From positions 3,080 through 67,079 of the forward strand of contig SHZM01000006.1 in the NCBI GenBank assembly GCA_009692265.1: 64,000 bases of DNA, written 5' to 3'. Both the position numbers and the translations under genes were made by a program. Position 1 is the first letter of the stretch; every line of letters begins with the position of its first letter. Shown one piece after another: positions 2,427-23,282 of this stretch. The notes beneath the pieces were generated by a model. That model was not told the DNA's origin. It ran no database searches and was given only the letters and a program-made list of their open reading frames with translations. This DNA comes from Gammaproteobacteria bacterium (GTDB lineage Bacteria > Pseudomonadota > Gammaproteobacteria > Ga0077536).

Positions 2427-2465
2427 ATCGCGTGTAGCTTCGAGGGCGTTCAGTAGACGCTCCGC

Positions 2466-3005: not shown

Positions 3006-3887
3006 ATGAATCCATCCATCGCCCATCGTCGCGCCGCGTTTGCGGAACGGATCCGCGCGCGCGAGTTCACGCTCGCGCCCGGCATCTTCGATTTTATTTC
3101 GCTGCGGATTGCCGATCAGGTGGGTTTCGATGCTCTGTATCTCAGCGGCTATGCCTCGATCGCCTCGAATCTTGGCTTGCCCGATGCAGGGCTCGCGTCC
3201 TATGCCGAGATGGTGGCGATGGCTACCAAGTTTGCGCAGTCCACGACCACGCCGATTGTGGCGGACGCGGATACCGGGTTTGGTGACCTACTGAATATTC
3301 ATCACACTGTTCGCGGGTACGAACGGGCCGGCGTCTGTGCGATTCAACTGGAAGACCAAGAGTTTCCCAAAAAATGCGGCCATACCACCGGCCGGCGCGT
3401 GGTCGCCCGTGCCCAAATGGTGCGTCGTATCGAGATCGCCGTCGCCGCGCGTGAGGATCCCAACCTACTGATCGTCGCGCGTACCGATGCGCGTACTGCG
3501 TTAGGGCTGGAGGAGGCGATCGCACGCGCCATCGCTTATCGCGCCGCGGGCGCCGATGTCATTTTCGTCGAGTCACCCGAAACACGCGGAGAATTCGCGG
3601 CGATTGGTGCGCGGGTTGATGCGCCGCTCGTGGCCAATATGGTAGAAAGCGGCCGTTCACCCGTGTTACCCAAAGATGAACTCGTCGCGCTCGGGTTTAC
3701 CCTCGCAATCTATCCGGGCACCGGCATGTGCGCCATGGCAGCAGCGCTGAATTTCGCTTTCGCAGCGCTAAAAGAAGTTGGTCATAGCGACGGCACGCGG
3801 GTGCCGCTCGCGAGTTTACAGACCATGCACGACATCACCGGATTCCCCGCCGTGTGGGCCCTCGAAGAAAAGTGGCAAGGAGACTGA
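3006..3887 (+). CDS. Isocitrate lyase/PEP mutase family protein (methylisocitrate lyase / carboxyvinyl-carboxyphosphonate phosphorylmutase-like)
   Basis: 293 aa with 'LYLSGYA…PIVADADTGFG' and other ICL/PEPM-superfamily signature regions. Confidence 0.85.
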   Translation: MNPSIAHRRAAFAERIRAREFTLAPGIFDFISLRIADQVGFDALYLSGYASIASNLGLPDAGLASYAEMVAMATKFAQSTTTPIVADADTGFGDLLNIHHTVRGYERAGVCAIQLEDQEFPKKCGHTTGRRVVARAQMVRRIEIAVAAREDPNLLIVARTDARTALGLEEAIARAIAYRAAGADVIFVESPETRGEFAAIGARVDAPLVANMVESGRSPVLPKDELVALGFTLAIYPGTGMCAMAAALNFAFAALKEVGHSDGTRVPLASLQTMHDITGFPAVWALEEKWQGD

Positions 3888-3890
3888 ACA

Positions 3891-4964
3891 ATGCCAACAC
3901 CCCGCGCACCCTTGTCCTTGGGCTTATTCATGCCCAATTGCAGCTACGCGTATTCGATTAGCACCTACAAACCCGAGGTGGATGACTGGACCTATGCGTC
4001 CAACCTCAAGATCGCACAAGCCGCGGAACGCGCCGGTTTTGATTTTCTATTTCCAGTCGCCAAGTGGAAAGGCTACGGCGGCAAGACGAATTACTTAGGA
4101 ACCTCGCTGGAGACGATGACCTGGGCGAGCGCGTTGTTAGCAAACACGCAACGCATTCAAGTGTTCTCCACCGTACATGTGCCAATCTTTCATCCTTTGG
4201 TGGCCGCCAAAATGGGTGCGACGCTCGATCATATTAGCAATGGTCGATGGGGCCTTAATGTCGTGAGTGGCTGGAGCGAACGCGAGTTCGGGCAAATGCA
4301 TATAGACGTGATTCCGCACGCGGAACGCTATGCACGAACATCGGATTACATTGAAATCATCAAAGCGTTGTGGACCGGTGAACCAGGCACGATTAACCAC
4401 CATTCGCAGTGGTACCAGATTACCGATGGCTGGGTGATGCCGCAGCCGACGCGCCGTCCCCATCCACCAATTGCGAACGCCGGGGTGTCCGACGATGCCA
4501 AGGAGATGGCGGCGCGTTGGTGCGATTGGGCGTTTATCTCACTACCGTCGGCGGCCGCGACTGCCGAGGTTACGAGTGACATCAAGGCCCGTGCACGACG
4601 CCACGGCCGGGAGATCAAATGCGCGGGTTATCCCTTTGTGCTGTGGCGAGATACCGAACGCGAAGTCGCTGATGAGCGTAGACGCATCATTGAACACTGT
4701 GATCGCGAAGCCGTAGAAAATTGGGCACGCGGGTTAGCGCCGCATAGCGGGTCTTTCGATAACTTCAGTGTGGAGATGTTCACGCTGGGTGGCGGCGCAC
4801 TACCGATATTTGGCACGCGTGAGCAGGTCGCGGAACAGATAGATCAGCTATACCGCGCGGGACTCGATGGCATGCTGATGGTGTTTCTTTCATATTACGA
4901 CGACACCTTACGCTTTGAGCAAGAGATAATGCCGTTGTTGCGGCAGCTCGGTACCGTCGGTTAG
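3891..4964 (+). CDS. LLM-class flavin-dependent oxidoreductase
   Basis: 357 aa with the LLM-family N-terminal pattern 'LSLGLFMPN…AERAGFDFLF'. Starts 4 nt after the preceding gene. Confidence 0.85.
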   Translation: MPTPRAPLSLGLFMPNCSYAYSISTYKPEVDDWTYASNLKIAQAAERAGFDFLFPVAKWKGYGGKTNYLGTSLETMTWASALLANTQRIQVFSTVHVPIFHPLVAAKMGATLDHISNGRWGLNVVSGWSEREFGQMHIDVIPHAERYARTSDYIEIIKALWTGEPGTINHHSQWYQITDGWVMPQPTRRPHPPIANAGVSDDAKEMAARWCDWAFISLPSAAATAEVTSDIKARARRHGREIKCAGYPFVLWRDTEREVADERRRIIEHCDREAVENWARGLAPHSGSFDNFSVEMFTLGGGALPIFGTREQVAEQIDQLYRAGLDGMLMVFLSYYDDTLRFEQEIMPLLRQLGTVG

Positions 4965-5132
4965 CAGCCTAATCGGTAAAACCTGCTGGCATAGGAACAA
5001 TTGAAGGCTGCTAAGTTGCATCGCCTGCTACACATCCTCGATGCGAGACTGCTCGAATTGCCTGGTACTGTTGAAAGTCAGTCGAGGAAGCGGTGGCTAA
5101 ATACTAGATGATGTGATTCGAGGAGAGGACAT

Positions 5133-7151
5133 ATGGGGCGTGTACGCGTAGCAGTGGATATCGGTGGCACCTTCACCGACATTTGCATACTCGACGAGGA
5201 CACCCATGCGCTGCGGGTCTTGAAATTACCCTCCTCTCAAGACCCGATCGACGCGGCACTCGATGGCCTTACCAAAGCGGGGTTGCACCTTGCGGACGTT
5301 TCTCTCTTCGCACACGGCACCACCGTCGCCACCAATGCGTTAATTCAACGCAATCTACCGCCTACGGCAATGGTGGTGACAGCGGGTTTCCGAGATGTTA
5401 TCGAAATCGGCAACTCGACCAAGGAAGATTTGTGGGACGCCTACCGCGATAACCCGCCACCTTATATACGACGACGGGACCGCTTACCGATCGCGGAACG
5501 AACCGATGCTTCCGGCAAAGTAGAACAGGCGATTGACCCGCTCGAAGCGCGGACCCTCGCGAGCAAACTTCGCAAACGTGGTTATCAATCCGTTGCGATC
5601 TGCTTTATGAACTCATTTGCAAACGCGGCCAATGAGAAAGCCATGAAGACGCTCTTGCAACAGGAACTTCCGGGGGTGGCGATCTGCACATCCGCCGAAG
5701 TGCTGCCCGAGATTTTTGAACATGATCGTTTCTCGACCACTGTCATTAATGCCGTACTGCGACCTGTCGTCGGCGAATACGCACTGCGCTTGCAAGAGCG
5801 ATTGAAGCAGGGCGGTTACCGCAGCGATGTGTTGCTCCTCCATAGCGGCGGCGGGGTGATGACACCCAAAAGTGTCGATACTCATGCTGCTCGTTTGGCG
5901 AGTTCGGGAATTGCCGCCGGGGCGATCGCGAATCGTTACATTGGCCAATTGTGTGGCTTTCCGAATTCGATTGGGTTTGACATGGGAGGTACCAGCACCG
6001 ATGTGTCGTTGGCGTGGCAAGGGCAACTGACTACCACACGCGATTGGCACATCGAATACGGACATCCAGTGTGTTTTCCAAGTATCGATATTAAAACCAT
6101 CGGCGCCGGTGGTGGCTCGATTGCGTGGATCGATGAAGCGGGGTCACTCCGCAACGGCCCGCAGTCAGCTGGCGCGTCCCCGGGACCGGCGTGTTACGGC
6201 CGCGGCGGCGAGAACCCGACGAATACTGACGCCAATTTAGTGCTGGGACGTCTTGATGGAAGCTTGGTGGGAGGAGATCTCAAATTAGACGTAAAGCGCG
6301 CTATAACGGCAATCGAGTCAAAGATCGCCCGCCCGCTCGGCATGGATTTAATCAGCGCGGCGAGGGCTATTATCAAAGTAGCGAACGGCAACATGTCCGA
6401 CGCGATAAGGTTAGTGTCAATCATGCGCGGGTATGATCCACGCGACTTCGCATTAGTCGCGTTCGGGGGCGCCGGTGCGCTGCACGGGGCGGCGTTGGCT
6501 CGGGATCTTTCGATCCCCTCGGTTATTGTGCCGCCACACCCTGGTGTTACGTCAGCGCTGGGGTGCCTGCTCGTGGATATTCGCCACGATCTGTTGACGA
6601 CTTTTGTGCGTGATGCCTCGAGTGTCGATCCGCATGAAATCGATCTCGAGTTTCAAAAACTCGAAGCGGAAGCGCGGGAGCGGCTGCACCATGAAGGCGT
6701 TGGTGATCAAAACGTCGTGCTCCAACGAACCATCGACATGCGCTATCAAGGCCAATGGCGATCGCTGTCAGTACCTGCCAGTACCCCATTCATCGATATG
6801 CACGAAGCCATTCAAAGCTTCAGTACAGCTCATCAACGTGAATATCACTATCAACGGGTGGGCGCCGGTATTGAAGTTTTTCGCCTGAGCTTAACGGCCA
6901 TTGGTTTAACCCCCAAAGCTGAACTAGCAAAGCATGTACCGCGCCATGACATACCAGTGCCGTATACCAAGCGACCGGTTATTTTCGACGAAGACACTTG
7001 TGAGTCTTCGATTTATCAGCGCGATGACTTACACAGCGGCGCTAGATTCAGTGGGCCAGCGGTGGTGCAACAACTCGACGCGACGACCGTGGTGCCGCCC
7101 GGTGTTAGCGTCACCGTGGACCCGTGGCTTAACCTAATCATGACAGTGTGA
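5133..7151 (+). CDS. hyuA: Hydantoinase/oxoprolinase family protein, A subunit
   Basis: N-terminus 'VRVAVDIGGTFTDICILD' is diagnostic of hydantoinase A / acetone-carboxylase beta. 672 aa. Immediately followed by the B subunit. Confidence 0.9.
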   Translation: MGRVRVAVDIGGTFTDICILDEDTHALRVLKLPSSQDPIDAALDGLTKAGLHLADVSLFAHGTTVATNALIQRNLPPTAMVVTAGFRDVIEIGNSTKEDLWDAYRDNPPPYIRRRDRLPIAERTDASGKVEQAIDPLEARTLASKLRKRGYQSVAICFMNSFANAANEKAMKTLLQQELPGVAICTSAEVLPEIFEHDRFSTTVINAVLRPVVGEYALRLQERLKQGGYRSDVLLLHSGGGVMTPKSVDTHAARLASSGIAAGAIANRYIGQLCGFPNSIGFDMGGTSTDVSLAWQGQLTTTRDWHIEYGHPVCFPSIDIKTIGAGGGSIAWIDEAGSLRNGPQSAGASPGPACYGRGGENPTNTDANLVLGRLDGSLVGGDLKLDVKRAITAIESKIARPLGMDLISAARAIIKVANGNMSDAIRLVSIMRGYDPRDFALVAFGGAGALHGAALARDLSIPSVIVPPHPGVTSALGCLLVDIRHDLLTTFVRDASSVDPHEIDLEFQKLEAEARERLHHEGVGDQNVVLQRTIDMRYQGQWRSLSVPASTPFIDMHEAIQSFSTAHQREYHYQRVGAGIEVFRLSLTAIGLTPKAELAKHVPRHDIPVPYTKRPVIFDEDTCESSIYQRDDLHSGARFSGPAVVQQLDATTVVPPGVSVTVDPWLNLIMTV

Positions 7152-7161
7152 AGGTTCTAAT

Positions 7162-9126
7162 ATGGATACGCCCGTGCGGGCCGGAACGACGCTCGATCCG
7201 GTCACTTTCGAAGTCTTACGCAATGCACTCGTCAACATTGTTGACCAAATGGCCGAACAGGTGCGTCGCACTTGTTTTTCATTCGTCGTCTACAACCGTG
7301 ATTTCTCTAACGCCTTATGTGATGCGGATGGAAATACCGTCGCCCAAGGGAATCAAGATTTAGCCGCGCACGTTGGTACCTTGCATTACACCTGCAAGGC
7401 AGTGTTGGAGGAATTCCGCGGTGAGATTCACCCGGGCGATGTGTTTCTTATCAATGATCCTTATGTCGGGGGCACACATTTCAGTGACACCCGCGTTTTG
7501 TTGCCGATTTTCGTTCAGGATGAACTGATTGCCTGGGCGCAAGCGAATGGTCATTGGGCTGATATGGGCGGTAGCGTACCGGGTTCTTTCGATGTCACGG
7601 CGCGCGATATGTTTAAAGAAGGGATTCGCATACCACCCGTTAAGATCTGGAGGCGCGGCGAATTCTGCGCGGACGTGGCAAAACTGATCGCGAAAAACAC
7701 CCGCGATCCCGCCGCGATTCTCGGTGACATGGAAGCACAGACGCAAGCGACACGCATTGCCGAGCGCGAACTACTTAGGTTATGCACCAAGTACGGGGTC
7801 GCAACCGTCAAAACCGCGTTTGCAGAAGTGCAAGACTATGTAGAGCGCGCGGTTCGCTTACGCCTGAGTGAGTTACCAGATGGTAGTTGGGAGACGGTCG
7901 ATTTTATTGATCAGGACCCAAGTGAAAGCGAGGGGCTTATCCCGATCCGGGTCAAAATGACGATCCGCGGGGATAGCATAGAATTTGACTTAAGCGGTTC
8001 ACATCCAACCATCGGGACTATCTATAACTGTGCATTCGGTGCCACGTTCGCGGCAATCGTGTCCGGCATGAAAACCTTCTTTCCGGATGTCCCTTTGAAT
8101 GCGGGGCTTTACCGTACGATCAAAGTCATTGCACCCGACGACACCGTTATCAGTGCACGGTGGCCAGTGGCGGTTTCCGGTTTTGTCATGGGGTTTGAAA
8201 AGATCATGAATGCGATCTTCGAACTCTTCTCGCAAGTGATGCCGGAAAGAGCGATGGCCTGTGCGTTCAATATTGAATACTTACAAACGGGGGGCTTCGA
8301 TGCACGCGGTGAGAAGCGAACCTTTTTTATGCTTTACGACTGGCTATCCGGCGGATGGGGTGGACGCAACGGCAAAGACGGTCTAGGGGTTACTGCCTCA
8401 TGCTTTGGTGTAGGCCTCATGACCCAACCGGTAGAAGGTCAAGAAAGAATGTGTCCGGTGCGTACGGATCGCATGGAGATCGTCATCGACAGTGGCGGTC
8501 CGGGCGAATTTCGCGGTGGTGTTGGACTAGATAAGGGCGGCACGTTGCTGGAAGTTGAGCGTTGCGTGTTCTCTTATTTTTGCGATCGCGAACGCTCAAT
8601 TGTATGGGGAATTAACGGCGGTTTGCCCGCTCGCCCCCATGGCTTGTGGTTAGAGCGGCCAGGCGAAGAGGCGCGCTTTTTGGGTGCCATGTTTTCCGAT
8701 GTACCCGTCACTAGTGGCACGAAATTTTGGCGAGGGACCTCGGGCGGCGGCGGTTACGGAGACCCGCTCAAGCGCGATCCGCGTCGTGTACTGGAAGACG
8801 TGGTCGATGACTATGTGTCCCTCGAGCGTGCGCGCCAAGACTACGGTGTCGTACTCGAACTAGTAGACGAAGACCTTGCGGAGTACACCATTAACGCGCA
8901 GGCGACGCGCGAAACACGCGCCTACATCGCCACTAATCGTAAACGTTGGCTCGACGAGGATCCGGCAACGGTCTCCGCACGCTTTCGCGCCCGTGAACTG
9001 GACCTTTACGACGTCATCCGCCGCTATGGTGTAATCTGTGATTGGGGAACAGGCCACCTACTGCCCGCGACTACTCGCGATTTCCGAGCGATGATGCAGA
9101 AGCGGTGCGTCCCTTATTGGACTTAG
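7162..9126 (+). CDS. hyuB: Hydantoinase B/oxoprolinase family protein
   Basis: N-terminus 'LDPVTFEVLRNALVNIVDQMAEQVRRTCFSFVVYNRDFSNALCDADGN' is characteristic of hydantoinase B. 654 aa. Confidence 0.9.
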   Translation: MDTPVRAGTTLDPVTFEVLRNALVNIVDQMAEQVRRTCFSFVVYNRDFSNALCDADGNTVAQGNQDLAAHVGTLHYTCKAVLEEFRGEIHPGDVFLINDPYVGGTHFSDTRVLLPIFVQDELIAWAQANGHWADMGGSVPGSFDVTARDMFKEGIRIPPVKIWRRGEFCADVAKLIAKNTRDPAAILGDMEAQTQATRIAERELLRLCTKYGVATVKTAFAEVQDYVERAVRLRLSELPDGSWETVDFIDQDPSESEGLIPIRVKMTIRGDSIEFDLSGSHPTIGTIYNCAFGATFAAIVSGMKTFFPDVPLNAGLYRTIKVIAPDDTVISARWPVAVSGFVMGFEKIMNAIFELFSQVMPERAMACAFNIEYLQTGGFDARGEKRTFFMLYDWLSGGWGGRNGKDGLGVTASCFGVGLMTQPVEGQERMCPVRTDRMEIVIDSGGPGEFRGGVGLDKGGTLLEVERCVFSYFCDRERSIVWGINGGLPARPHGLWLERPGEEARFLGAMFSDVPVTSGTKFWRGTSGGGGYGDPLKRDPRRVLEDVVDDYVSLERARQDYGVVLELVDEDLAEYTINAQATRETRAYIATNRKRWLDEDPATVSARFRARELDLYDVIRRYGVICDWGTGHLLPATTRDFRAMMQKRCVPYWT

Positions 9127-9269
9127 ATCGAGGACGTTGGCTAGACATTAGACGCTATTCAAATTCGCGTACCGCGACGATACTGGGGCCTGGTTGGTCA
9201 CGCGCGAGTTACACGATGTTTATTCAAAGCTTATCTGGCAGCACGCTTCGCGAGGTACGTAGGCGAACG

Positions 9270-10232
9270 ATGGAGTGCTTGGCTGCCATGCTGGCGCTGA
9301 ACCTCGCAACGAGTGCATGTGCTGAGGATAAGGTCGGCGCGAGCGCCTACGGCCCCGCGGATGAGGTCGGCGCATTAAATGTCCTGACCGACTCCACACG
9401 GCTCGCCGTGCTACAGCGAATTGCCAGCGGCAAGATTTACGACCTCAGCGTGGAGAGTTTTCCTGGAATGCCCGGGTTGGTGCACCTCGGCATGGGCGAC
9501 CCCGAATACCATCACTGGATGACGCACACGCCGGAAGGACTCGCGATCGAGGGTTTGAATCCCGGCGACCCGCAGCATCCCATCGGGTTGTACGACGATG
9601 CGATAATTATGTCTGTCCACACCGGTACCCATATCGATGCGCTGAATCATGCGGGCTACGGTGATCAGATCTATAACGGCTTCAAGCGCTCCGAACATCT
9701 TGGTAACAAGGGCTGGAAGGTCGCCGGCGCGGATCGCATTCCCGCCATCATCACGCGTGGCGTGCTGATCGACGTTGCAGGTTGGAAGAAGCTCAACGTG
9801 CTACCACCGTCCTACGAAATTACGCCGTCCGATCTCGAAGCAGCACTCGCCGCACAAGGCACCTCACTGCAAAAAGGCGACGCGGTGTTCATTCGCACTG
9901 GCCGGATGACGTTATGGCCAGACCCCACGACGTACGTGCCTCACGAACCGGGTATCGCACAACCGGGCGCCGCTTGGCTGATTGAGCATGGGGCCGTCAC
10001 GATGGGCGCCGATACGATCGCGTTCGAACGTCTGCCCATCAAGGGCAAAGCCGTCCACAGCTTTGTATTTGCAGAACGCGGCGTCACGATCATGGAGAAC
10101 GTCTGGTTGGAGGATCTCGCGAGCGACAGATGCTATGAGTTCGTGTTGTTTGCAGCACCAATCAAACTGCGGGGTGCGACAGGTGCGCCGATCCGACCCT
10201 TCGCTTTACCGATAAAAATAACATCGAAGTAG
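9270..10232 (+). CDS. Cyclase family protein (kynurenine formamidase-like, PF04199)
   Basis: 'HTGTHIDALNH' matches the HxGTHxDxxxH cyclase motif. The ORF-track start at 9042 overlaps hyuB. The internal ATG at 9270 (MECLAAMLALNLATSACA, signal-peptide-like) is the more plausible start. Confidence 0.75.
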   Translation: MECLAAMLALNLATSACAEDKVGASAYGPADEVGALNVLTDSTRLAVLQRIASGKIYDLSVESFPGMPGLVHLGMGDPEYHHWMTHTPEGLAIEGLNPGDPQHPIGLYDDAIIMSVHTGTHIDALNHAGYGDQIYNGFKRSEHLGNKGWKVAGADRIPAIITRGVLIDVAGWKKLNVLPPSYEITPSDLEAALAAQGTSLQKGDAVFIRTGRMTLWPDPTTYVPHEPGIAQPGAAWLIEHGAVTMGADTIAFERLPIKGKAVHSFVFAERGVTIMENVWLEDLASDRCYEFVLFAAPIKLRGATGAPIRPFALPIKITSK

Positions 10233-10357
10233 CGATCGGATGCCTAGGTACCGAACTTGCAGCTATCGCGGATATCGCGGCGAATCCCTCAGCTGCAGCA
10301 GTCAAGCTGCTCTAGCTTGATTGATTTTTCCGCGCGAAAAAACTCGATTACCACCGA

Positions 10358-11008
10358 TTAATCGCGGCGCTGCCCCCAGCGTCCCCAGTGCATGACACCA
10401 TCGACCGCAGCGCGCGTGGTCGGCCCAAATCGACCGACCGGATAGCCAAGCGGGATTAGCGCGGCGATCTCCTTGTCGGTCGGTATATTTAACCGGACTT
10501 TGAGTTCATCTTCGAAGAAATAGTGCAGCGTGGTCAACGTGGCGCCGAGCCCGAATGCGCGGCAGGCTAAAAGAATGTTTTGCACCGCCGGATAAATTGA
10601 AGCGTGCAGTGTCGCTGTAATCGAACGCGGGTTACCGAGTTCAGCGTAGGTCGGGAAATCCGTGCCGGTGCAGGCCAGCAGAATCACCGGCGCTTCGTCC
10701 ATATGCTCGGCGAGATGAATCGCAGAATCGAACATGCGACGCCGTTCCGGCGGAATGTTCGCCATCGATGGGATCGTGCCCTCACGTTCGAGTCGGCGGT
10801 AGTTCGCGAGATAGTGATCGCGGATAAAGCGCTTATCGTCGACACCGTCGACGAGCACGAACCCCCAATTCTGGAAGTTGCTGCCGCTTGGCGCATGGAT
10901 GCCCGCCTCAATGACTCGCTTCAAGATCTCCGGCGAAATCGGGTCCGGTTTCAGTCGACGCATCGAGCGCGTCGAATAAATCGTTTCGAATAATCCGATA
11001 TCGGACAT
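10358..11008 (-). CDS. Nitroreductase family protein
   Basis: 216 aa with the nitroreductase N-terminus 'ETIYSTRSMRRLKPDPISPEILKRVIEAGIHAPSGSNFQNWGFVLV'. Confidence 0.85.
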   Translation of the reverse strand: MSDIGLFETIYSTRSMRRLKPDPISPEILKRVIEAGIHAPSGSNFQNWGFVLVDGVDDKRFIRDHYLANYRRLEREGTIPSMANIPPERRRMFDSAIHLAEHMDEAPVILLACTGTDFPTYAELGNPRSITATLHASIYPAVQNILLACRAFGLGATLTTLHYFFEDELKVRLNIPTDKEIAALIPLGYPVGRFGPTTRAAVDGVMHWGRWGQRRD

Positions 11009-11109
11009 GTCACGCTCCAGTGTTGGTTAGATTCGCGCTAAGGCCACTGCCAAGCGACGGCCCAGTTAGCCCTCTAGCAGCAGCTAATTAATCTCGGTAA
11101 GAACATCCA

Positions 11110-11613
11110 TCACGCCGGTTGCGCCGCTCTGAGTTGCGCCTCGCAATAGGCGGCCAGCCGTTCCAATTCGTGGGCACAATCGCCGGCGAAACATGTGCCG
11201 TGCATGACCGCGAGACGCGTGGGGTGCAATGCTTTGAGCGCCCGTATGGTCGGCGCGGTGGCGGCATCGACGATACTCTGTTCGCTGAGCGCGGGCCCAT
11301 CGCCTAACTGCGTAAAGAGATCGCCGGTGAAAAGCGTTTGCGTCGTTTCCTCGAAGATCAAGCCGGATTCCCACGCATGGGGTACATGCGGTGTGTCGAT
11401 ATAGCGTACCCGTTTGTCACCCAAATCGAGCACCTCGCCATTCGCGAGCGGACGCGGCGGTCGGTCCGCGAGATCGTTGAGCGATACCATGCACGCAATT
11501 GCACCGTGCACGACCTGTGCCTGTGGCGCGGTCGCGAGCCATTGGTTCATCGATGCGCGTCTGCATGTGCAAACTCCCTTGCGGCTGGACCCACTAAAAA
11601 AATATGGCTGCAC
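11110..11613 (-). pseudogene. MBL-fold metallo-hydrolase, C-terminal fragment
   Basis: The C-terminal region is protein-like ('…IDTPHVPHAWESGLIFEETTQTLFTGDLFTQ…') but the HxHxDH N-terminal half is absent. It lies in the decayed region. Confidence 0.4.
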
Positions 11614-11907
11614 TGGCAGTATACCGACAGCTAAGGGCGGGCAGGCGGGTCTGCGATCCTGAAGTCGGCGCCAGAATCAGTTGAACGGCCAACCTGTCAC
11701 ACGCCACGGACTGCACGGCGTTTTGATGCGGGTTTGAGGTCGTATAACACGGGCACCATGGACCGTGGTCGTTGGCGCTTTGCGAGCGGCTGCCGACATG
11801 CCAGTTGGTTCGGCGGTCTGTGCGCAGTGTACGCCGGCAACATACCGCGGTTGCGCGACAATGGGGCACCCCTGATGCGCCTGGCTTTCGTTCCCGCCAG
11901 TTAAGTC

Positions 11908-12528
11908 GTGTTGCTCGACACCTGGCATACCAGCGGCTTACAGGGGACCGCTAGCGATGACTTTCAGTGCAGCAATGTCTTCGTGCCATACGCGCGCACA
12001 ATCGACTTGTTCGGTCCACCGCGCGACTCTTCTCCGGTGTGGCGATTACCTATCAGTCTGCGCTTCGCGATGAGCAAGGCCGCCGCGACCTGTGGCATCG
12101 CGCGCAGCGCAATGGATGCGCTGCTGCCGCTGCTGGAACGTGTATCGTTCGCTGGTGCGCGGCCCGCGCGCGAGGAACCGAGAGTGCACGTGATGCTGGC
12201 CGAAGCCGAAGCCGCCATCGAAGGCGGGCGCGCGTACCTTTATCAAAATGTGGAGGAGGCGTGGGCGGCGGTTCAGGCCGGGAACATGCTCGATACGGCG
12301 GCCGTCGCGAAAGTACGACTAGCAATCGTGTCCGCTGCGCGCCGCGCGTCCGATGCCGTGCAAAATTGTCAGGAACTCGGCGGGACTGCGGCGATTTTTG
12401 ACCCAGCGCTCGATCGCGCCGAGCGCGATCTAAACGTGGCCGGACAGCACCTGCAGTTGCAAGCGCATGTCATGGAAGATGTCGGGCGTGTCCTCCTCGG
12501 CATGACGCCACGGAGTCCGATGTTTTGA
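11908..12528 (+). pseudogene. Acyl-CoA dehydrogenase-like flavoenzyme, C-terminal fragment
   Basis: Only a ~200 aa C-terminal helical-domain-like segment is present ('…AKVRLAIVSAARRASDAVQNCQELGGTAAIFD…'). There is no N-terminal or beta-domain. Confidence 0.45.
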
Positions 12529-12697
12529 CGCCCGCGATCGGCAACCCGGCGCGACGACTGCTGCGTCACGCGTCGATCGTCATCGCCTTCCAAATCACAC
12601 CGGCCTGAACACGGGCACCGGTTGCTCATCGCACGTTTCAAAACCCAGCCTAACCTGCTGGCCGATCGCGAGTGCGTCCAGATCGCCTGATCCGGCC

Positions 12698-13920
12698 GTG
12701 ATGAGTCAGGTGCTAGGCATCGTCACTCGAGCCATCGCGAGTCATCTGATCAAAGCCGCCGGCTATCAACATGAGACGGCGCAGACTGGCGCGGTGACGT
12801 TGATTCAACGTTTCGGCAGCGCTTTGAACATGAACATCCACTTCCACATGCTGTTCCTCGACGGCGTGTATGTGACGAGCGGCGAGCGGTTGAGCTTTCG
12901 GCGGTTGCCGCCGCCAACCGTGGCCGCGCTTGAGAAGTTGGTTCGCGGGATCAGCGAGCGGGTCGGCCGCGCACTCGAACGCCAAGGGCTGCTGGTGCGG
13001 GACCTGGAAAACAGCTTTCTGACGCTGGGCTCCGCTGAAGGCTCGGGCTTCGATGACCTTTTGGGTCATTCCATCACCTACCGGATTGCGCTCGGTCCCC
13101 ACCAAGGCCGCAAGGCGTTTACGTTGCAGCCGGTGCCAGTAGTCACCGCAGCAGACGGCAACAGTTCCGTCGCGAAAGCAGCCGGGTTCTCGTTGCACGC
13201 CGGGGTGGCGTGCGAAGCACGAAGCACACGAGCGGGAGAAGCTGGAACGCCTGTGCCGCACTATCACGCGCCCGGCGGTCTCGACTGAGCGCCTGTCGCT
13301 CACAACCCAGGGGAATATTCGCTACCGTCTGAAAACGCCGTACCGGGATGGCACGACGGACGTGGTGTTTGAGCCGCTGGATTTGATGGCGCACCTCCCT
13401 GTGCGCCACCCTTCGGGCGACCTGCGGTCGTCCAAATCGGCAGTCCTGCCGATTTGTCATGGCCCGGCTGACCGCCTTAGGTAGCCGACGCCACGGGTCA
13501 ATCTCACGCGCTACCACGGCGTGTCGCGCCGAACCATCGACTGCGTGAACAAGTGACGCTGGCCCGGCGCGACCGGCGCAAGGCTGAGACTGCCGAAGAA
13601 CCTACTCCCGCGCGCCACGTCTCGATGACGTGGGCGCAACGGTTGAAGCGGATATTACTCCGGGCATCCTGCCCTTCGCCCTACGGGCCGGCCTGCGGCT
13701 GTTCCAATTCGCTCCAGGCGATTGGGTCAAGATCGACATCTTGACCTGCGAGCATTGTGGTGGTGCGGTCAAAGTGATCGCGAGCATCGAAGATCCTGCC
13801 GTGATCAAGAAAATCCTCGATCATCTCGAGCGGCGGGCCGAGCCCGCGACACCCGTATTCAGACCCTTCGCCCGCGCGCCGCCGCAGATGGCATTACCGG
13901 GACTGAAGGAACCGGGCTGA
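12698..13920 (+). mobile_element. tnpA: IS91-family (rolling-circle HUH) transposase remnant, frameshifted
   Basis: 'LIQRFGSALNMNIHFHMLFLDGVY' is the HUH motif region. 'NIRYRLKTPYRDGTTDVVFEPLDLMAHL' appears in a second frame. The C-terminus is 'CEHCGGAVKVIASIEDPAVIKKILDHL' in a third frame. Multiple frame changes indicate a pseudogene. Confidence 0.75.
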
Positions 13921-13935
13921 CGGTACTGCACCCTT

Positions 13936-14172
13936 CCCTACCCACGGACGCGAGGCTGGCCCGACACCCGGCTTAGCCTCACTCGCGCCCAGCGGCCTAA
14001 AAGGTCGACATTTCGCGGCAGGAAACGCTCTCAGCGAGGCCCCGGTGTCGCGGCTCAGTGGAATTCCGGGATAGTCGGCCCCGTAAAGTACGGACGTGCC
14101 TCTCCACGGCGCTCGACTTCCACCTCGGCGGTGCTCGATCGCGCCGACAAGGGCGGTTGTATTTTCTATCCG
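13936..14172. repeat. Copy 2 of the ~240 bp dispersed repeat, abutting the 3' end of the IS91 tnpA remnant
   Basis: Aligns over ~237 bp with 15583-15820 and over ~190 bp with 2238-2426. Begins 16 bp after the tnpA remnant ends. Confidence 0.85.
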
Positions 14173-14335
14173 CCCCTACCTCAATTTTTCCATTGGTTCG
14201 AAATGGCGCGCGCTCATCCACAGGGCCTGGCCTAGTGCCGATCCACTCGTAGGTTTCTGGGGTAACGAAAGGGTAACTGCCTCGTTCAGCAGAATCGAGC
14301 ACTGCTGAAGGTGGCGCGCGACGGCGAGCGTGTTA

Positions 14336-15367
14336 CTACGGCGTATCGCGGTCTCCGCAGGCGAGCAGCGTCCGGAGCGCGCACCGGATCGCTGTCTCAT
14401 CGTCCGGACATTGCCACGGATTACCCGCGCGATGGCCCCAGATCGACGCTATGACGCGCAATTCGGCATGCGGCATCAGGGCAGATTCGCGGCGACTGTC
14501 TTCGACCGTGAAGTAAAGATCGGTCGACGCCGGCATCACCAAGGTACGGGCTGTGATCGCGCCAAGTGCACGGGTGAGATCGCCGTGGTAGCGATCGTTA
14601 TCCGAAATATCGGAAGCCAGCCACGTGTCGAGCATCGACAGGAGGTCACGCGGGTCCCGTCTGAGAAAGCGCTGCTCCCAACCGCGCACGAGAAAGTCCT
14701 CCAGCGATTCATATCCATGTTGAGCCCATACAAGCTCGCGATAAAAAGCCTGACTGAGTGCCCAGCCGGCGTAGACACGCGCAAACGCTTTAACCGCGCG
14801 TGTCGGATGCGCATCGAAGGTGCCGTCGCGCCATGCCCCATCGGCATGCAACGTCGCTCGCAGTCCTTCCAGGAAGACGCGATTGTGCGGCGAGGTCTTC
14901 GCCGAAGTGCATAGGGCGCAAATTCGCGCGACGCATTCCGGATGCAAGGCGCCCCAGTGCAACGCCTGCTGACCACCCATCGACCAGCCGTAGACAAGCG
15001 CGAGTCGCGTTATACCAAAGACGTCCGCGAGCAGCTGTCGTTGGGCCTCGACATTGTCCACATGCGTGAATACGGGAGGCGAGCGACTTCGGAAAGCTTC
15101 ACCAAGCGTGCTGGGGGAACTTGAAAGACCATTGCCGAACTGATTAACCACCACGATGAAATAGCGGGTCGGATCGAGTATCCGATTCTCGCCGATCGCC
15201 CATTCAAGATCAGGATGCTGCGCGCCGTACCAGCTCGGATACAGGATCACGTTATCGCGAGTCGCGCTAAGCGCGCCGTAGGTTTTGTACGCCACGACCG
15301 CTTGCGGCAGGATGGCGCCTCGCTGGAGGCGAAAATTCGGAATGACAAATTGCTGATACTCCATCAC
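14336..15367 (-). CDS. Homoserine O-acetyltransferase-like alpha/beta hydrolase (MetX family)
   Basis: 343 aa with 'VYGWSMGGQQALHWGALHPE' (GxSxG) and MetX-like N-terminal beta-strand region. Intact, and flanked by direct repeat copies 2 and 3. Confidence 0.8.
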   Translation of the reverse strand: MMEYQQFVIPNFRLQRGAILPQAVVAYKTYGALSATRDNVILYPSWYGAQHPDLEWAIGENRILDPTRYFIVVVNQFGNGLSSSPSTLGEAFRSRSPPVFTHVDNVEAQRQLLADVFGITRLALVYGWSMGGQQALHWGALHPECVARICALCTSAKTSPHNRVFLEGLRATLHADGAWRDGTFDAHPTRAVKAFARVYAGWALSQAFYRELVWAQHGYESLEDFLVRGWEQRFLRRDPRDLLSMLDTWLASDISDNDRYHGDLTRALGAITARTLVMPASTDLYFTVEDSRRESALMPHAELRVIASIWGHRAGNPWQCPDDETAIRCALRTLLACGDRDTP

Positions 15368-15582
15368 GAGACGGTGACAGATTTATTTCCGCGCCTCAAC
15401 CGGCGACTGCCGCGGTGGCAATTTATTTTTGAGCTAGCCAGGATCTCGCACGCAATAGCGCGCGAGCACCCGAGCCCGGACAGGTTGACCCCGATGATCC
15501 ACCCACGAATCCGCGCCCACTTCGAACGGGCGAGGGGTCTGCCACGTGACTCGCGAGGTCTCGGTCGGAGTATTCGCACCCA

Positions 15583-15820
15583 CCCTACGCACGGACGCGA
15601 GGCTGGCCCGACACCCGGCTTAGCCTCACTCGCGCCCAGCGGCCTAAACGCTCGACATTTCGCGGCAGGAAACGCGCTCAGCGAGGCCCCGGTGTCGCGG
15701 CTCAGTGGAATTCCGGGGTAGTCGGCCCCGTAAGGTGCGGACGTGCCTCTCCACAGCGCTCGACTTCAACCTCGGCGGTGCTCGATCGCGCCGAAAAGGG
15801 CGGTTGTATTTCCTATCCGC
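15583..15820. repeat. Copy 3 of the ~240 bp dispersed repeat
   Basis: Near-identical to copy 2, including the 5' extension 'ccta…cacggacgcgaggctggcccgacacccggcttagcctcactcg'. Confidence 0.85.
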
Positions 15821-15822
15821 GT

Positions 15823-16521
15823 CGTGTGTTCCCTCTGCTTCTCGGGATCGTTGAACAAAATAAATTCGTTCAATTCCTTGTAAATCTGCGCTCGGGATTG
15901 ATGAATGGCATTGGCGTCGCGGGTGAAATGCGCAAGCTGCTCGGCCGTGTATGGCGTGTCTTCCTTCGGCGCGAACCAGTTCGCGGTGCGCTGGAACAGA
16001 TGGAGCGCGCTGGTATTGTGCGCGATCTCGGGGACGAACTGGACGGCGCTCGCGGCACTACCGCTCACCACGATCGGCGCACGGAATTCCTGACCATCGG
16101 TAGTCGTGACCTGCCACCGCGAAGTCGTATCCTTCCAACGCGCGGCAGTAACCGGATGCTGAAAGCGCACGTAAGGCAGGATGCCGTAGTTCTCGGCAAC
16201 CTGCTGCAGATATTCAAGGATTTCAGCCTGGCCGGAGAATGGCCGCGACCAGTCAGTTTTTAATTCAAACGAAAACGAATAGAGATGCGATTTGACATCG
16301 CACTCGGTGCCCGGATAGCGGTTGTGCCATCAGGTGCCGCCAACGCCCCCAGCTTTTTCCAGGACAACAATGTCCTTGATGCCCGCTTCGAGCAACTTGG
16401 CTGCGGTGCATATCCCGCCAGGGCCGGCCCCGATAACGATCACTCTAAAGTCGTGTTTCTCGGCGGCAGCCATAGGATGTTTCGCTCGCAAACTCGATGA
16501 TAAAATTGATGAGTCGTCCAT
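15823..16521 (-). pseudogene. Flavin-containing (Baeyer-Villiger-type) monooxygenase, frameshifted and 3'-truncated by repeat copy 3
   Basis: The N-terminus 'HDFRVIVIGAGPGGICTAAKLLEAGIKDIVVLEKAGGVGGT' carries a GxGxxG FAD motif. It continues in another frame as '…RFQHPVTAARWKDTTSRWQVTTTDGQEF…', and the reading frame runs into repeat sequence at ~15830. Confidence 0.6.
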
Positions 16522-16871
16522 ATCGGCCGGCGACGTTCATCGGCGTGATGACGCCGATTTTACTGAAAACACCTCGGGTGAGTAGCGGGGTCGGGAAACG
16601 AGTCGCCCCGGGAACATCGAAGTGAACTCGATACGACGAATAGGTCGCGAATCAGCCAAGCGTCTTGGCCAATTGACCACACCGAATCCCTGGTGCAGAT
16701 TAACAGCCGATATCCGCCTACCCCTATTGATAGGCACTGCGATCCATCAGTAAATCGCTTCTGAGAAAGTTTACAATGCCGCGTAATTCAGGTTTGACCT
16801 ATTCGACCAGCATGCTCTGGTGGTTCGGGACATGCACGCTTCGCGCGTGGACGAACACGTCAGCATAGCCC

Positions 16872-17468
16872 GTGGAAATCCTAGTCCCCGGTTACGCAGG
16901 GCGCGCGGTCATGGTGCCGGTTGGCAGCACACTCAAGGTCGTTGATGTGGAAGGTTGCCAAATTGGTGATCTCTTCGTGCTCGCAGCATCCGATCTCGAT
17001 GAACGTCTGAGTCCTGGCGTGACGCGCTTGATCAATTTCACACCGTTCCCACACCTGGGAGAATCTTTCTACAGCAACCGTCGCCGATCCCTGTTAACTT
17101 TGCTGGAAGATACGTCGCCTGGTCTGCATGACATGACCTTTGCGCCGTGCGATGCCGAGCTCTATCGAACATTCAACGCCGGAGACGAGCATCCGAATTG
17201 CCGCGATAACTACTTTCGCGCAATGGCTGCCTTAGGTGTCGCTGCACACTCACACCCCGATCCGATCAATGTGTTTCAGAACACGCCCGTCAATCTCAAC
17301 GGCAGCTATACGATCGGCGCAGCCTTGTCGCGCCCCGGCGATTACATCGCGCTGCGCGCAAACATTGATTTGATCATTGCGTTAACCGCATGTTCGGTCG
17401 ATATCCCGTTTGAGGGTATACAACCAAACGGTGGTCGCTCGACATCGCTGCGTCTAGAAATCTCTTGA
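16872..17468 (+). CDS. DUF1989 / urea-carboxylase-associated family protein
   Basis: 198 aa. The pattern 'GCQIGDLF…FAPCDAELY…CRDNYFRAMAALG…IGAALSRPGDYIALRA' resembles DUF1989. Confidence 0.7.
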   Translation: MEILVPGYAGRAVMVPVGSTLKVVDVEGCQIGDLFVLAASDLDERLSPGVTRLINFTPFPHLGESFYSNRRRSLLTLLEDTSPGLHDMTFAPCDAELYRTFNAGDEHPNCRDNYFRAMAALGVAAHSHPDPINVFQNTPVNLNGSYTIGAALSRPGDYIALRANIDLIIALTACSVDIPFEGIQPNGGRSTSLRLEIS

Positions 17469-17486
17469 GGCTTTAATGTCACGCCT

Positions 17487-18602
17487 GTGTTCGTAGCCAA
17501 CCGCTACCAACAAATTGCTCTCTGCGCGGGCAACACCTGCGCCTACGCCGTAGTGAACACAACGCCACTCGTACTCGGCGCCTTAATGCAAAGCTTTGTG
17601 CTCGACGAAGCCCAGGCTGGTGCGTGGATCACGCTCGAATTACTGGTGATGGGCGTCGTTGCGCTGCTCATTGCACCTTGGATGGGTGGCACCCGCAAGC
17701 GACAAATCGCATGGCTCGCAGCTGGCGTCATCGTGGTCAGCGAGCTCGCGGCCGCCGGTACTTCTTCCGCGTCATGGATGTTGGTATGGCTAACGGGTCT
17801 GGGCCTTGGTGCCGGCCTCATGCTGGCCGCTAACAACGCCATCATCGCGGCAACCTCCACCCCCGATAAGCTTTTTGGCTACGCGTTCATGGTGGCTTAC
17901 GGGATCACGGCGTTGCTGGTTTTCGCAATGGCGCCGGCGATTGCGCGGACAGAACATGCTGGCGCTTATGTCGTGCTTGCAGCATTTACCGCGCTACTAG
18001 TGCCTTGGTTACGCGTGTTGCCGAACCCAGGTGGCACGATCACCGCCGACCCCGTGCGCGTTGTCGCGACTTCTCGCGGGGTGATTTTGTTGGTCGGCAT
18101 CGCGCTGATCGGGGTCGGGATGATGGGGTTCTACGCCTATATCGAGCGCCTAGGTGTACGCCTCGGATTGTCACCGAATACGATTGCCCTCGTCTTCGCA
18201 TTCCAACAGATAGCGTCGGTTTTTGGTGCGGCGCTGGCGGCATCGCACGGCACAAAAGTGGGATTGCTGCGATCACTCCTCATCAGCACCTTGCTGCACA
18301 CGAGCGCTATTCTCACTGCAGTGTTCGGCGATTCCCTGGCGTGGTTCGCCACCGGCGTGATCGCAGAAGGCTTCACCTTCCTGTTTCTACTACCCCTGCA
18401 ATTTACCTTGGCCGCGCAAATCGATCCGAGCGGGCGCTGGGCGGCAGCTGCCAACGGCGTATTGATGATCAGCACCGGCGCCGCGCCATTTCTCGTGGGT
18501 GTCTTGATTAGTGCCTTTGACTATCGGGCCATCGGTTGGTTGATGTTAGCCGTCTCCCCATTGGGGATGTGGGCTTTCGTGACCGCGAGCAAGACCAAGT
18601 AA
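17487..18602 (+). CDS. Polytopic membrane protein, MFS-transporter-like (YbfB/YjiJ-like)
   Basis: 371 aa, very hydrophobic, with ~10-12 predicted TM helices. There is no soluble domain. Confidence 0.55.
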   Translation: MFVANRYQQIALCAGNTCAYAVVNTTPLVLGALMQSFVLDEAQAGAWITLELLVMGVVALLIAPWMGGTRKRQIAWLAAGVIVVSELAAAGTSSASWMLVWLTGLGLGAGLMLAANNAIIAATSTPDKLFGYAFMVAYGITALLVFAMAPAIARTEHAGAYVVLAAFTALLVPWLRVLPNPGGTITADPVRVVATSRGVILLVGIALIGVGMMGFYAYIERLGVRLGLSPNTIALVFAFQQIASVFGAALAASHGTKVGLLRSLLISTLLHTSAILTAVFGDSLAWFATGVIAEGFTFLFLLPLQFTLAAQIDPSGRWAAAANGVLMISTGAAPFLVGVLISAFDYRAIGWLMLAVSPLGMWAFVTASKTK

Positions 18603-18803
18603 GGCACGTGTTGCCCTCGTATCACGATGCAAAAACGCCATGCCGATCTTACCCATCCCCTCATAAAATTCGGTGCTCATAGATGTGCGAAGACCCCGGT
18701 GAATGCACGATGCTGTACCAACAGGTCACTGAAGCGCTGAAGTAACGGCCGTAAGCGTGGCTCGGGCATCGTCGGGATTGCGTCGTAGAGCATCATGCCT
18801 TGA

Positions 18804-20132
18804 CGGGTCCTGTCAGGAATTATGTGTTTGTGAGCCATACTTTGATCCGGGGAGGATAGAGCATGGCAACGAAGAAAGCGTCGGCGTTCAGCGCCGAATC
18901 ATTGGATGAGCTGTTGGCTGATCAGGACCCTGGTACGGTCTTGAACTCGGATGGCTTTCTGGGAGATTTAAAGAAGGCCCTGGCAGAGCGGATGTTAAAT
19001 GCCGAGATGGATGTCCATCTTGGCCGTGAGTCTGAACGAGAGTCGGGTAACCATCGCAACGGGAGTAGTACCAAGACCGTACTGAGTGGTGACGGCGAAG
19101 TCGTATTGTCGATACCTCGCGACCGTCATGGTCGCTTTGATCCGGCGCTGATAGGCAAATATCAACGGCGGTTTCCAGGCTTCGACGAGAAGATTATCGC
19201 GTTGTATGGGCGGGGGATGAGCACGAGGGATATTCAGGCCCACGTGGGCGAACTATACGGCGTGACGATGTCACCGGATTTGGTGTGTGCGGTAACAGAA
19301 TCGGTGATGGAGGAAGTGCGCGCGTGGCAATCGAGACCCTTGGAAGCGACCTATGCGGTGGTCTTTTTTGACGCCTTGCGGGTGAAGATTCGGGACGAGG
19401 GAATGGTACGTAATAAAGCGGTGTATCTGGCGATTGGGATGCGCTGCTCGGGGCACAAGGAAGTCCTGGGGCTGTGGATTGAGCAGACGGAAGGCGCGAA
19501 ATTTTGGTTGCGCGTGATGAACGAGCTACGCGCACGCGGCCTGCAGGACATTTTGATTTCAGTGGTGGATGGGCTGAAGGGATTCCCGGAGGCGATCACC
19601 TCCGTGTACCCGGAGACCGTGGTCCAGACGTGCATCGTGCATCTCCTGCGTAATTCGCCCTATCTAGCTTCCTGGAAAGACCGCAAGGCGCTGACTGCGG
19701 CGCTGAAACCGATATACCAGGCCGATAGCCTGGAAGCCGCTGAGCGCGCGCTGACGGCCTTTGAAGCCGGTCCCTGGGGACAGCAGTTTCCGACGATTGC
19801 CGAAAGCTGGCGTCGTCACTGGGCGCACATCATTTCGTTTTTCGCGTTTGCGGCGCCGGTCCGCACCACCTTGTACACGACCAACGCGATTGAGAGTTTG
19901 CACAGCGGGGTGCGCAAAACGATTCGCAACAAAGGCCATTTCCCAAACGATGATTCCGCCACCAAACTCATCTGGTTGGCACTACGAAACATTACCGCGA
20001 AATGGGTCAATCCGCCTATCGCCTGGGCTCAAGCCAAGGCACAATTCGCGATACAATTCGGAGACCGATTCAGTGTCGCCGATTAATCAACAACGGCTCA
20101 CACACAAAATTTCTGACAAGCTCTCAGGCCCG
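18804..20132 (+). mobile_element. IS256-family insertion sequence (intact transposase CDS 18863..20086)
   Basis: 407 aa transposase with 'LDELLADQDP…DGFLGDLKKALAERMLNAEMDVHLG…VVDGLKGFPEAI…CIVHLLRNS', an IS256/mutator signature. Imperfect terminal inverted repeats at 18804-18836 ('cgggtcctgtcagg…gtgtttgtgagcc') and 20095-20132 ('ggctcacacacaaa…ctctcaggcccg'). Confidence 0.9.
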
Positions 20133-20139
20133 GCAATCC

Positions 20140-20650
20140 GAATGACAGCGGCGCCCGAGCAAACGGTCTGAAGGCGGGGGTTGCGGGCTCAGTCCACCGA
20201 TCGAGGTGTTCCAGGATCTGTTTGATCACTGCCGGATCTTCAATGCTCACGATCACCGTGACAGCGCCCCGTAGTGGTCACAGACCTCGATATCGAGCTT
20301 AAACACCCGCTTCAATCGTTGCGCCCATGTCATCGACATGTGGCGTTGGTACCAGTGGGGCAAGCCGGGCGATAAAATACTCCGGGCATCCTGCCCTTCG
20401 CCCTGCGGGCCAGCCAGCGGCACCCGACGAAAGGTTAAGCGCTCGCCCGCCGTCACCTACACGCCGTCGAGAAACAGCATATGGGCCGCTCCTGCGCATC
20501 CCTGCGCCCGTGGCATTCGTGCATCCATCCCCAGCAAAGTGGATGCTTAGCGCGCTGCCGAAACGCTGGATCAACCTCACCGCCAGTCTGTGCTGTGGCG
20601 TGGTGACAGCCGGCACCGGCATCGGTGCGCAGTGCAGTATTTGGGGGTAG
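20140..20650 (-). mobile_element. Second IS91-family transposase remnant (3' portion, frameshifted)
   Basis: Minus-strand frames give 'HRLAVRLIQRFGSALSIHF…', 'MSMTWAQRLKRVFKLDIEVCDHYGALSR' and 'IVSIEDPAVIKQILEHL', matching the IS91 TnpA C-terminus. IS256 sits immediately next to its 3' end. Confidence 0.6.
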
Positions 20651-22869: not shown

Positions 22870-23282
22870 CCCGAGCGTGCCGGTACGCGATCGAGAACAA
22901 CACTGCAAAGCTTAGGAAATTTAACGGCCCTTCGCCGACCCTGTCCCGCGGAATCGAACGTCGAGTGCAGGAAAATGGAAGGCTCGTGAAGGACCGGTCG
23001 GCGGTGGGAAGTAGCTGTTTCGCTCAGAATGGCGCGAGCCCGTTCCCCCAGGGGAGTGCTTGACCTCGAGATATCGCGCGTTTGGATCGACTGGCGCGCA
23101 CGACCCCTTGCCGGGGTCAGGCCAGCTTCGCGTCCCTGCGTGAGAAAGGGGCAGTGCCTTCAGCGCGATGTTCGCGATCCAGCACCGAAAATATTCACTC
23201 GTGGTGCCGGTAAAGGGAAACGGACAGACCGTCGTCGGCGCGGTGTCAGGGGCAGCGGCGATATCATCCACAGTCGAATCCG

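Follow-up and report, generated by a model that had tools for sequence, protein, structure and literature searches.

Why does a short non-coding sequence recur three times in one orientation in the genome of an environmental gammaproteobacterium, with two of its copies bracketing an intact gene and one standing directly behind a decayed transposase gene? The repeat lies in a stretch of 64,000 nucleotides from Gammaproteobacteria bacterium (GenBank assembly GCA_009692265.1, contig SHZM01000006.1, positions 3,080 to 67,079 of the forward strand), all of which was analysed and which we refer to as the window. A preliminary description of the locus had placed the repeat at the origin-side end of an IS91-like insertion sequence (IS), and had suggested that such an element mobilized the bracketed gene, which encodes a MetX-like hydrolase, or that the repeats mediate its excision. 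Most work on ISCR elements, which are relatives of IS91, concerns the antibiotic-resistance genes that they carry in plasmids of clinical origin. Here we report that the repeat is very probably the non-coding tail, containing the transposition origin oriIS, of an unnamed and decayed element of the ISCR type, and that the region is an ordinary, inactive scar field of this known family of mobile elements.

Results

The repeat and its copies

A repeat search of positions 1-20000 and of the whole window found one family with three direct copies, all on the plus strand. Copy 2, which serves as the reference, spans 13936-14173, and copy 3 spans 15583-15820 and is 95% identical to it. Copy 1 was called as 2189-2426, with 79% identity over its full length; an alignment that includes the flanks limits its homology to copies 2 and 3 to the 3' 189 nt, 2238-2426, which is how the preliminary description had delimited it. 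Identity is 95.4% over 238 nt between copies 2 and 3 and 92.6% over 189 nt between copy 1 and either of the others, and the similarity among the three is far beyond chance. In the same alignment the likeness of all three copies ceases at one common right-hand position. A flank shared by copies 1 and 3 was looked for, without a significant result. Copy 2 starts 15-16 nt past the stop codon (13918-13920) of a frameshifted relic of an IS91-family transposase gene (relic 1), directly behind it as first described.

An array of this kind might also arise through mis-joins at the repeat during assembly. The source is indeed a contig of a metagenome-assembled genome (MAG), and one short-read assembly (L003) broke inside both repeats. 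However, copies 2 and 3 differ at 11 of 238 positions and each copy has unique flanks, and an independent public assembly (ENA ERZ1305449, a 16-kb contig) shows the same gene order across the array. We therefore regard an assembly artefact as highly improbable.

A common terminus with ISCR elements

The identity of the repeat became apparent from contigs that encode intact relatives of the transposase (loci numbered with an L), which we compared with the window. In L004, L010, L011, L014 and L018 the repeat is collinear with the DNA that follows the transposase stop codon, and this DNA reaches its end, AAGGGCGGTTATnnTTCCTATACTC, after 233-263 nt; in the relatives a conserved block, TGACGGCACTGCCCCTTTCTCACGCAnGGACGCGAGGCTGG, lies directly past the stop codon and another, GCTCGATTnCGnnGAAAAGGGCGGTTATnTTTCCTATACTC, lies at the terminus. 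The motif RGGnnnnTTnnnnnTTCCTAT[AC]Cnn occurs 170-265 nt past the stop codon (80 metagenomic loci). Where the same element is found in different contexts, its flanks cease to agree exactly 4 nt past CTAT, as is seen in L004 against L007, in L014 against L015/L016 against L017, and in five contexts of the element of L024-L032. The latter is ISCR1, since 2069 PLSDB plasmids match it at at least 99% identity and are annotated as ISCR1 family. The family-wide terminus is thus ...GGTTnTnTTTCCTATnCnn, and the right edge of the repeat lies there, at the same boundary as that of the ISCR1 oriIS region.

All three copies in the window end at the position where the relatives diverge. Copy 3 ends in ...TTTCCTATCCGC, which is the consensus, copy 1 in ...TTTCCCTTCCGC, which is mutated relative to TTTCCTATCCGC, and copy 2 in ...TTTTCTATCCGC or, in longer form, ...AAGGGCGGTTGTATTTTCTATCCGC. 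For a terminus profile we took the final 60 nt of each of 29 other elements, with ISCR1 among them and the window left out, and searched both strands (128 kb) with it. Its matches in the window are exactly copies 3, 2 and 1 (E-values of 3.8e-7, 5.6e-5 and 6.9e-4), a fourth copy on the minus strand (22908-22967, 4.7e-4) and one further minus-strand terminus (28142-28192, 3.3e-3). Because the repeat is collinear with the post-stop DNA of relatives, shares their terminus and matches the profile, we assign it to the tail of an ISCR-type element, and the earlier claim that it carries an origin-side terminus holds to the nucleotide. By comparison with the relatives we take copy 2 to be the native 3' end of relic 1 and copies 1 and 3 to be orphan oriIS ends. 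Of the features that mark an ISCR element, the locus has an HUH transposase (Zn_Tnp_IS91 and Y2_Tnp, the window copy being a pseudogene), an oriIS terminus and no terminal inverted repeats; a boundary at the termination site terIS, upstream of the transposase, is not found in the window, where relic 1 starts at residue ~140.

The same evidence bears on whether the repeat could instead be a repetitive extragenic palindromic (REP) sequence, a miniature transposable element with inverted repeats (MITE) or a structured-RNA element that is unrelated to IS91/ISCR and sits beside the relic by chance. Nothing positive speaks for this, other than that copies 1-3 lie downstream of plus-strand reading frames or relics and that the repeat is GC-rich with local hairpins. 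A scan of the whole window against Rfam gave 0 families at gathering thresholds, the repeat folds no better than shuffled sequence on either strand (z = -1.06 and -0.92), and the consensus fold of 9 homologues (-9.2 kcal/mol, covariation term -0.47) consists of weak hairpins without covariation. The stem-loop singled out in the preliminary description is broken in copy 1 and absent in relatives. No inverted repeats involving the copies were found by the repeat search of the window, and thus no terminal inverted repeats, nor was any promoter or terminator consensus found in the repeats. Membership of an unrelated REP or MITE family had been named as the outcome that would count against a link to IS91. 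Collinearity with the tails of intact ISCR relatives, the profile matches and the exact common terminus effectively refute it, and an RNA gene likewise.

Several points nevertheless weigh against the assignment to an ISCR tail. We found no intact element with this exact (D1-type) tail, the closest tails being ~72-79% identical over the conserved blocks. The repeat has no match in PLSDB (blastn), a degenerate 37-nt terminal pattern has none in JGI metagenomes, and an exact 20-mer of the repeat gave 2 matches in 185,579 species-representative genomes, both of them chance 20-mers inside open reading frames (ORFs). A profile of the relatives' 5' regions detects no terIS in the window, and a complete element cannot be reconstructed here; because these copies are decayed, we do not count the missing terIS against the family assignment. 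The GTTC/CTTG tetranucleotides expected at the copy boundaries are absent: the 4-nt flanks beyond the termini are ATCG, CCCT and GTCG, with none of CTTG, GTTC or GTCC beside the oriIS termini of the copies, and the flanks are diverse in the relatives too. Furthermore, the orphan tails are all no longer than the non-coding module, and uniform random deletion of a ~1.95-kb element would rarely yield five of six such ori-containing fragments (P about 2e-4, by our own estimate), so that simple decay may not be the whole story. Lastly, transposition is without experimental demonstration for any ISCR element (PMC6218425, PMC9376610).

Transposase relics and their relatives

Relic 1 (12689-13920, plus strand), as reconstructed by six-frame reading and tblastn, corresponds to residues ~140-498 of intact 498-aa relatives and is broken into at least 4 frame pieces. 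Its N-terminal zinc-finger part is missing and its HUH motif (HFH) is kept; an ORF of the relic matches PF04986. The motif CRYITRP reads CRTITRP in the relic (13230-13260): Thr stands in place of a Tyr that all of the six closest intact relatives share, a loss that fits long inactivity. With intact metagenomic proteins of 492-498 aa that carry PF14319 and PF04986, the reconstructed relic shares 81-85% amino-acid identity; to ISCR1, ISCR2-like and ISVsa3 proteins it is 62-68% identical (64% to the ISCR2-like protein). The closest PLSDB relative is ISVsa3/ISCR2, at 68% to one of the intact relatives, P0002. Among NCBIfam models, this protein scores best with 'ISCR element clade Ia' (ISCR_clade_Ia), at 611 bits against a clade-specific cut-off of 925, and it reaches 106 bits with the IS91 equivalog NF033538, below the cut-off of 125; by these scores we place P0002 in the ISCR group, outside the curated clade Ia.

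A second transposase relic lies at 20125-20592 on the minus strand and consists of fragments of residues 171-213 and 366-494. It forms an inverted repeat, I1, with 12844-12911 and abuts an apparently intact transposase gene of the IS256 family (PF00872; 18863-20086, plus strand). No intact ISCR transposase is present in the window.

Orphan tails and the genes beside them

Copy 1 (2238-2426, plus strand) is an orphan oriIS-end fragment that comprises the last 189 nt of the module and begins directly past the stop codon of a luciferase-like monooxygenase gene (867-2237). The native oriIS-containing 3' region of relic 1 extends over 13921-14173 on the plus strand, the repeat proper being copy 2. 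The orphan oriIS region of copy 3 extends over 15566-15820 (plus strand), with high identity to copy 2 from 15583 and, upstream of that, a weak likeness that reaches roughly to where the tnpA stop codon would stand; there is no transposase remnant upstream of copy 3.

Copy 3 ends where another gene is broken. A flavin-monooxygenase-like (flavin-containing or Baeyer-Villiger-type) pseudogene at 15823-16473 on the minus strand, whose homologues have 307-382 aa, spans residues 1 to ~260, has an internal stop inside its GGTW motif and is cut exactly at the copy 3 terminus, its homology ending at 15823. The remainder of the gene is nowhere in the window, including to the left of copy 3. A junction of this kind is expected at a transposon end. 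The NCBI record has, across this junction, a 134-aa 'hypothetical protein' that reads from the pseudogene into the repeat.

ISCR remains beyond those listed in the preliminary description are relic 2 and two minus-strand tails. Copy 4 (22909-23166) is an orphan oriIS region that is 88% identical to the post-stop region of L011 and belongs to a subfamily other than that of copies 1-3; it starts at the tnpA stop-codon position (GCTGAAGG...) and has a degenerate terminus (TTTCCTAAGCT). The candidate fifth orphan terminus (28142-28200) has homology limited to its last ~55 nt, which end in ...GACTCGATTCTGCCGCAGAGGCCGGCTATTCTCCCTATACTC. The window contains two further pairs of direct repeats, between 35003-35460 and 42910-43373 (207 and 224 nt, 71-73% identical, ~7.9 kb apart), which are probably paralogous genes unrelated to ISCR tails.

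The bracketed hydrolase and the question of its mobilization

Between copies 2 and 3, as first described, lies an intact gene (14336-15364, minus strand) for an alpha/beta hydrolase of 342 aa counted from the ATG, with flanks of 162 bp and 218 bp on its two sides. Its product passes NCBIfam NF005757/PRK07581, a model annotated as 'hypothetical protein', with 469 bits against a cut-off of 332, and fails the MetX cut-offs (TIGR01392, 134 bits against 500). From these scores the gene appears only MetX-like, short of an assignment to the homoserine O-acyltransferase MetX. A check for foreign composition was negative: GC (0.60) and GC3 (0.67) are within the range of the neighbouring genes and codon usage is ordinary.

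In IS91, oriIS lies at the right end, downstream of the transposase gene tnpA, and initiates transposition, and terIS terminates it; failure of termination in 1-14% of events carries along DNA beyond terIS, which is known as one-ended transposition, and the functional intermediate is a bottom-strand single-stranded circle (PMC13181058). The family has no terminal inverted repeats (PMC13181058). Replication of the IS91 type runs from oriIS through tnpA to terIS, so that one-ended events take the DNA on the terIS side, upstream of the element (PMC13181058, PMC6218425). DNA downstream of an oriIS is therefore not mobilized by that element. The hydrolase gene is on the wrong, downstream, side of the oriIS of copy 2 and on the terIS-ward side of the oriIS of copy 3. 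The suggestion that an IS91-like element mobilized the gene thus fits copy 3 and the sandwich-like layout, and fails for copy 2, the copy that belongs to relic 1. Excision mediated by the repeats is likewise a possible history, with no excised, ancestral or alternative arrangement of the hydrolase on record (from a look-up of its homologues and of the last ORF of the relic, which led to the same contig only). Either event is a possible history at best.

We considered whether the layout might record a capture of the gene, in which a circular intermediate of rolling-circle transposition, with the hydrolase on board, recombined through the shared tail with a resident ISCR copy and a second transposase gene was lost later, forming a sandwich or translocatable unit. 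Such a layout matches that of the reported ISCR28 sandwich, in which two sequential oriIS surround a captured gene (PMC12772301, citing Yuan et al. 2024), and IS91-type circles with catabolic genes have been observed (PMC5737581). Moreover, the hydrolase is the sole intact gene of the stretch in question, and copies 2 and 3 resemble each other (95.4%) more than either resembles copy 1 (92.6%). Nevertheless, the DNA from the hydrolase to copy 3 holds no second transposase remnant, the hydrolase is on record in no other context and in no circular form (homologues outside its own locus reach 69% identity at most, and every exact match is that same locus), its composition is ordinary, and an identity of 95% between the copies speaks against a recent duplication. 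We consider this history possible and on balance unlikely.

The homology of the tails, their exact terminus, their state of decay and the gene broken at copy 3 are observed; the nicking, the rolling-circle transposition and the order of events we infer, the mechanism by analogy with IS91. An HUH transposase would nick the bottom strand at the terminus ...TTTCCTATCCGC, the nicked strand would be displaced by replication that runs leftwards through tnpA as far as terIS, and the resulting single-stranded circle would insert elsewhere. Copies 1 and 3 and the two minus-strand copies would then be orphan tails from separate insertions or rearrangements, and the hydrolase would be bracketed only because two tails of the same orientation came to flank it. 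The pair of copies 2 and 3 could support RecA-dependent excision or amplification of a 1647-bp unit, and the intact terminus of copy 3 could in principle serve in trans. By itself the array cannot be active, because the window lacks both an intact transposase and a terIS, mutations affect two of the three termini and the copies are only 95% identical. The surroundings of the tails contain many pseudogenes and other IS remnants.

Left boundaries of the orphan tails

The position of the left ends of the tails calls for an explanation. None of the orphan tails contains tnpA sequence, and the left ends of copies 3 and 4 and of an orphan tail in L077 lie ~0-25 nt from the stop-codon position; copies 1 and 5 do not reach that far. 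Among relatives of the close clade a 16-nt box, CGCAnGGACGCGAnGC, occurs 16 nt upstream of the ATG and again 16-20 nt past the stop codon, with 13-14 of 16 matches; shuffled controls reach a maximum of 12-13 of 16. The sequence GCT(A)GAC stands 18 nt upstream of the box at both places (19 nt in copy 2 of the window). Loci in which the box flanks the transposase ORF on both sides are L004, L010-L016, L092 and L093; in the window the box falls within 13921-13985.

The clade might thus carry a second terIS-like signal past the stop codon (GCTGAC-18 nt-CGCAnGGACGCGAnGC, mirroring the 5' GCTAGAC-N18-box), and premature termination there would free tail-only mini-elements of ~250 nt, which would then insert at other places, so that the orphan tails would be small non-autonomous elements. 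Such an internal signal would explain why copies 3 and 4, which are from different subfamilies, and the L077 tail start at the stop codon and lack transposase sequence, and the tail-only units would be a MITE-like class of offspring. To our knowledge, no such class has been described for IS91/ISCR elements. Also in keeping with this idea, GCTAGAC is the exact point at which the upstream homology of two full-length relatives, L012 and L092, stops, and GCTGA is the start of copy 4. However, L004, L010, L011, L014 and L093 share homology well upstream of GCTAGAC, and the left end appears ambiguous even in the relatives, at GCTAGAC (-45) or at about -190. The boundaries are approximate (about +/-10-20 nt), with those of copies 1 and 5 falling short; the box match is barely above the shuffles and the box is absent in ISCR1; copy 3 is no simple insertion, as no continuation of the monooxygenase gene follows to its left; and the sample is tiny. 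On this evidence we think premature termination rather improbable.

Two other origins for the tails were rejected. That the orphan copies are terIS joined to oriIS with tnpA deleted is contradicted by the lack of terIS-region homology anywhere in the window, and a deletion of tnpA by recombination between the two 16-nt boxes is contradicted by copy 4, which keeps the post-stop spacer upstream of the box.

Two features of the 5' regions of relatives deserve mention. L011 and L014 have a perfect 17-bp hairpin, CCGTCCTCGTCCCTACC-N7-GGTAGGGACGAGGACGG, about 190-250 nt upstream of tnpA, of which L004 has the right arm only; it may be a real terIS palindrome or captured flank. In L019 (public metagenome contig ORBV01153663) positions 1-20 belong to the Nextera/Tn5 mosaic-end adapter, AGATGTGTATAAGAGACAG, and the GCTAGAC of the ISCR 5' region comes immediately behind them; this start is adapter contamination in the deposited assembly.

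Small insertions in the transposase genes

Relic 1 contains two insertions of one small-element family on the plus strand: 73 nt at 13385-13457, at the same tnpA position as in the relative L018, and 71 nt at 13657-13727. A truncated copy of the ~72-nt element lies in relic 2 (20378-20422), and relatives have it at L018 4105-4177 and at L019 347-418 and 671-743. The element is ~72 nt long, has three short hairpins and occupies five independent positions inside ISCR transposase genes. The insertions lie between TT and C of an otherwise uninterrupted reading frame, which their length of 71-73 nt shifts. Neither the window nor 88 loci yielded a further copy to a profile of the six, though tnpA makes up only ~30% of that DNA, and the element has no match in PLSDB and IMG/VR. 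It has the look of a MITE/REP-like element that prefers ISCR transposase genes.

Discussion

We have found that the locus is decayed, inactive and ordinary, and that its element belongs to a known kind. Its interest lies in showing that catabolic-looking regions of uncultured environmental Gammaproteobacteria, too, are strewn with ISCR-type elements, and that in such genomes the oriIS terminus can be recognized to the nucleotide with a simple profile. This is of use in annotation, where a short repeat next to a pseudogene can be interpreted as the end of a transposon and can mark the limits of an earlier insertion. Two observations would, if confirmed, matter more: that left boundaries of orphan ends cluster at the transposase stop codon, which bears on termination in ISCR elements, and that there is a ~72-nt mini-element, which in these data is seen only inside ISCR transposase genes.

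ISCR1, the common region of complex class 1 integrons, is among the closest known systems. Its transposase is 60-62% identical to the intact relatives, it likewise has a non-coding post-stop region of ~230-250 nt (232 nt as we measured it, in agreement with the 232 bp published for the oriIS region of ISCR1 (PMC6218425)), and it ends in GGTTTATACTTCCTATACCC where the window has GGTTGTATTTCCTATCCGC, with variable DNA beyond in both. Between the tail in the window and that of ISCR1, however, similarity is detectable in the last ~35 nt only, none of the outward promoters known from ISCR1 can be recognized in the repeats, and the host is an environmental gammaproteobacterial MAG in which the copies are decayed and stand in no integron context.

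ISCR2/ISVsa3 is the closest annotated plasmid relative, at the transposase identities given above (68% to P0002; 64% between the relic and an ISCR2-like protein). In the ISCR2 group, copies that are truncated at the 5' side, keep the oriIS end and stand in direct orientation around a cargo gene (tet(X), floR or sul2) are the usual picture; a case is the CR2-sul2 unit (PMC9376610). The window differs in that the cargo is a catabolic-type hydrolase and not a resistance gene, and in that the second copy is without transposase sequence. In the reported ISCR28-armA and sul4 sandwich, a gene lies between two sequential oriIS of the same orientation, one of which belongs to a remnant element (PMC12772301, citing Yuan et al. 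2024). Reports also place attC sites immediately behind ISCR28. The order tnpA-oriIS, gene, oriIS in the window resembles that sandwich, but the window has no working transposase on either side and no terIS.

With IS91, IS801 and IS1294 the element shares an HUH transposase with zinc-finger and Y2_Tnp domains and distinct ori and ter ends, with oriIS downstream of tnpA (PMC13181058). It differs from IS91 in the strict sense in the equivalog score of P0002 (106 against 125), in a tail of ~250 nt, whereas 82 bp suffice for IS91, and in having no CTTG/GTTC target beside oriIS; the absence of these tetranucleotides at the termini sets these elements apart from IS91 proper. Comparable in setting are the IS91/ISCR8-type elements of catabolic clusters in Sphingobium and Delftia, which have a 17-bp oriIS 167 bp past the coding sequence (PMC5737581). 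Like those elements as described (PMC5737581), the remains in the window are found in an environmental host, adjoin catabolic genes and include partial copies that share terminal regions.

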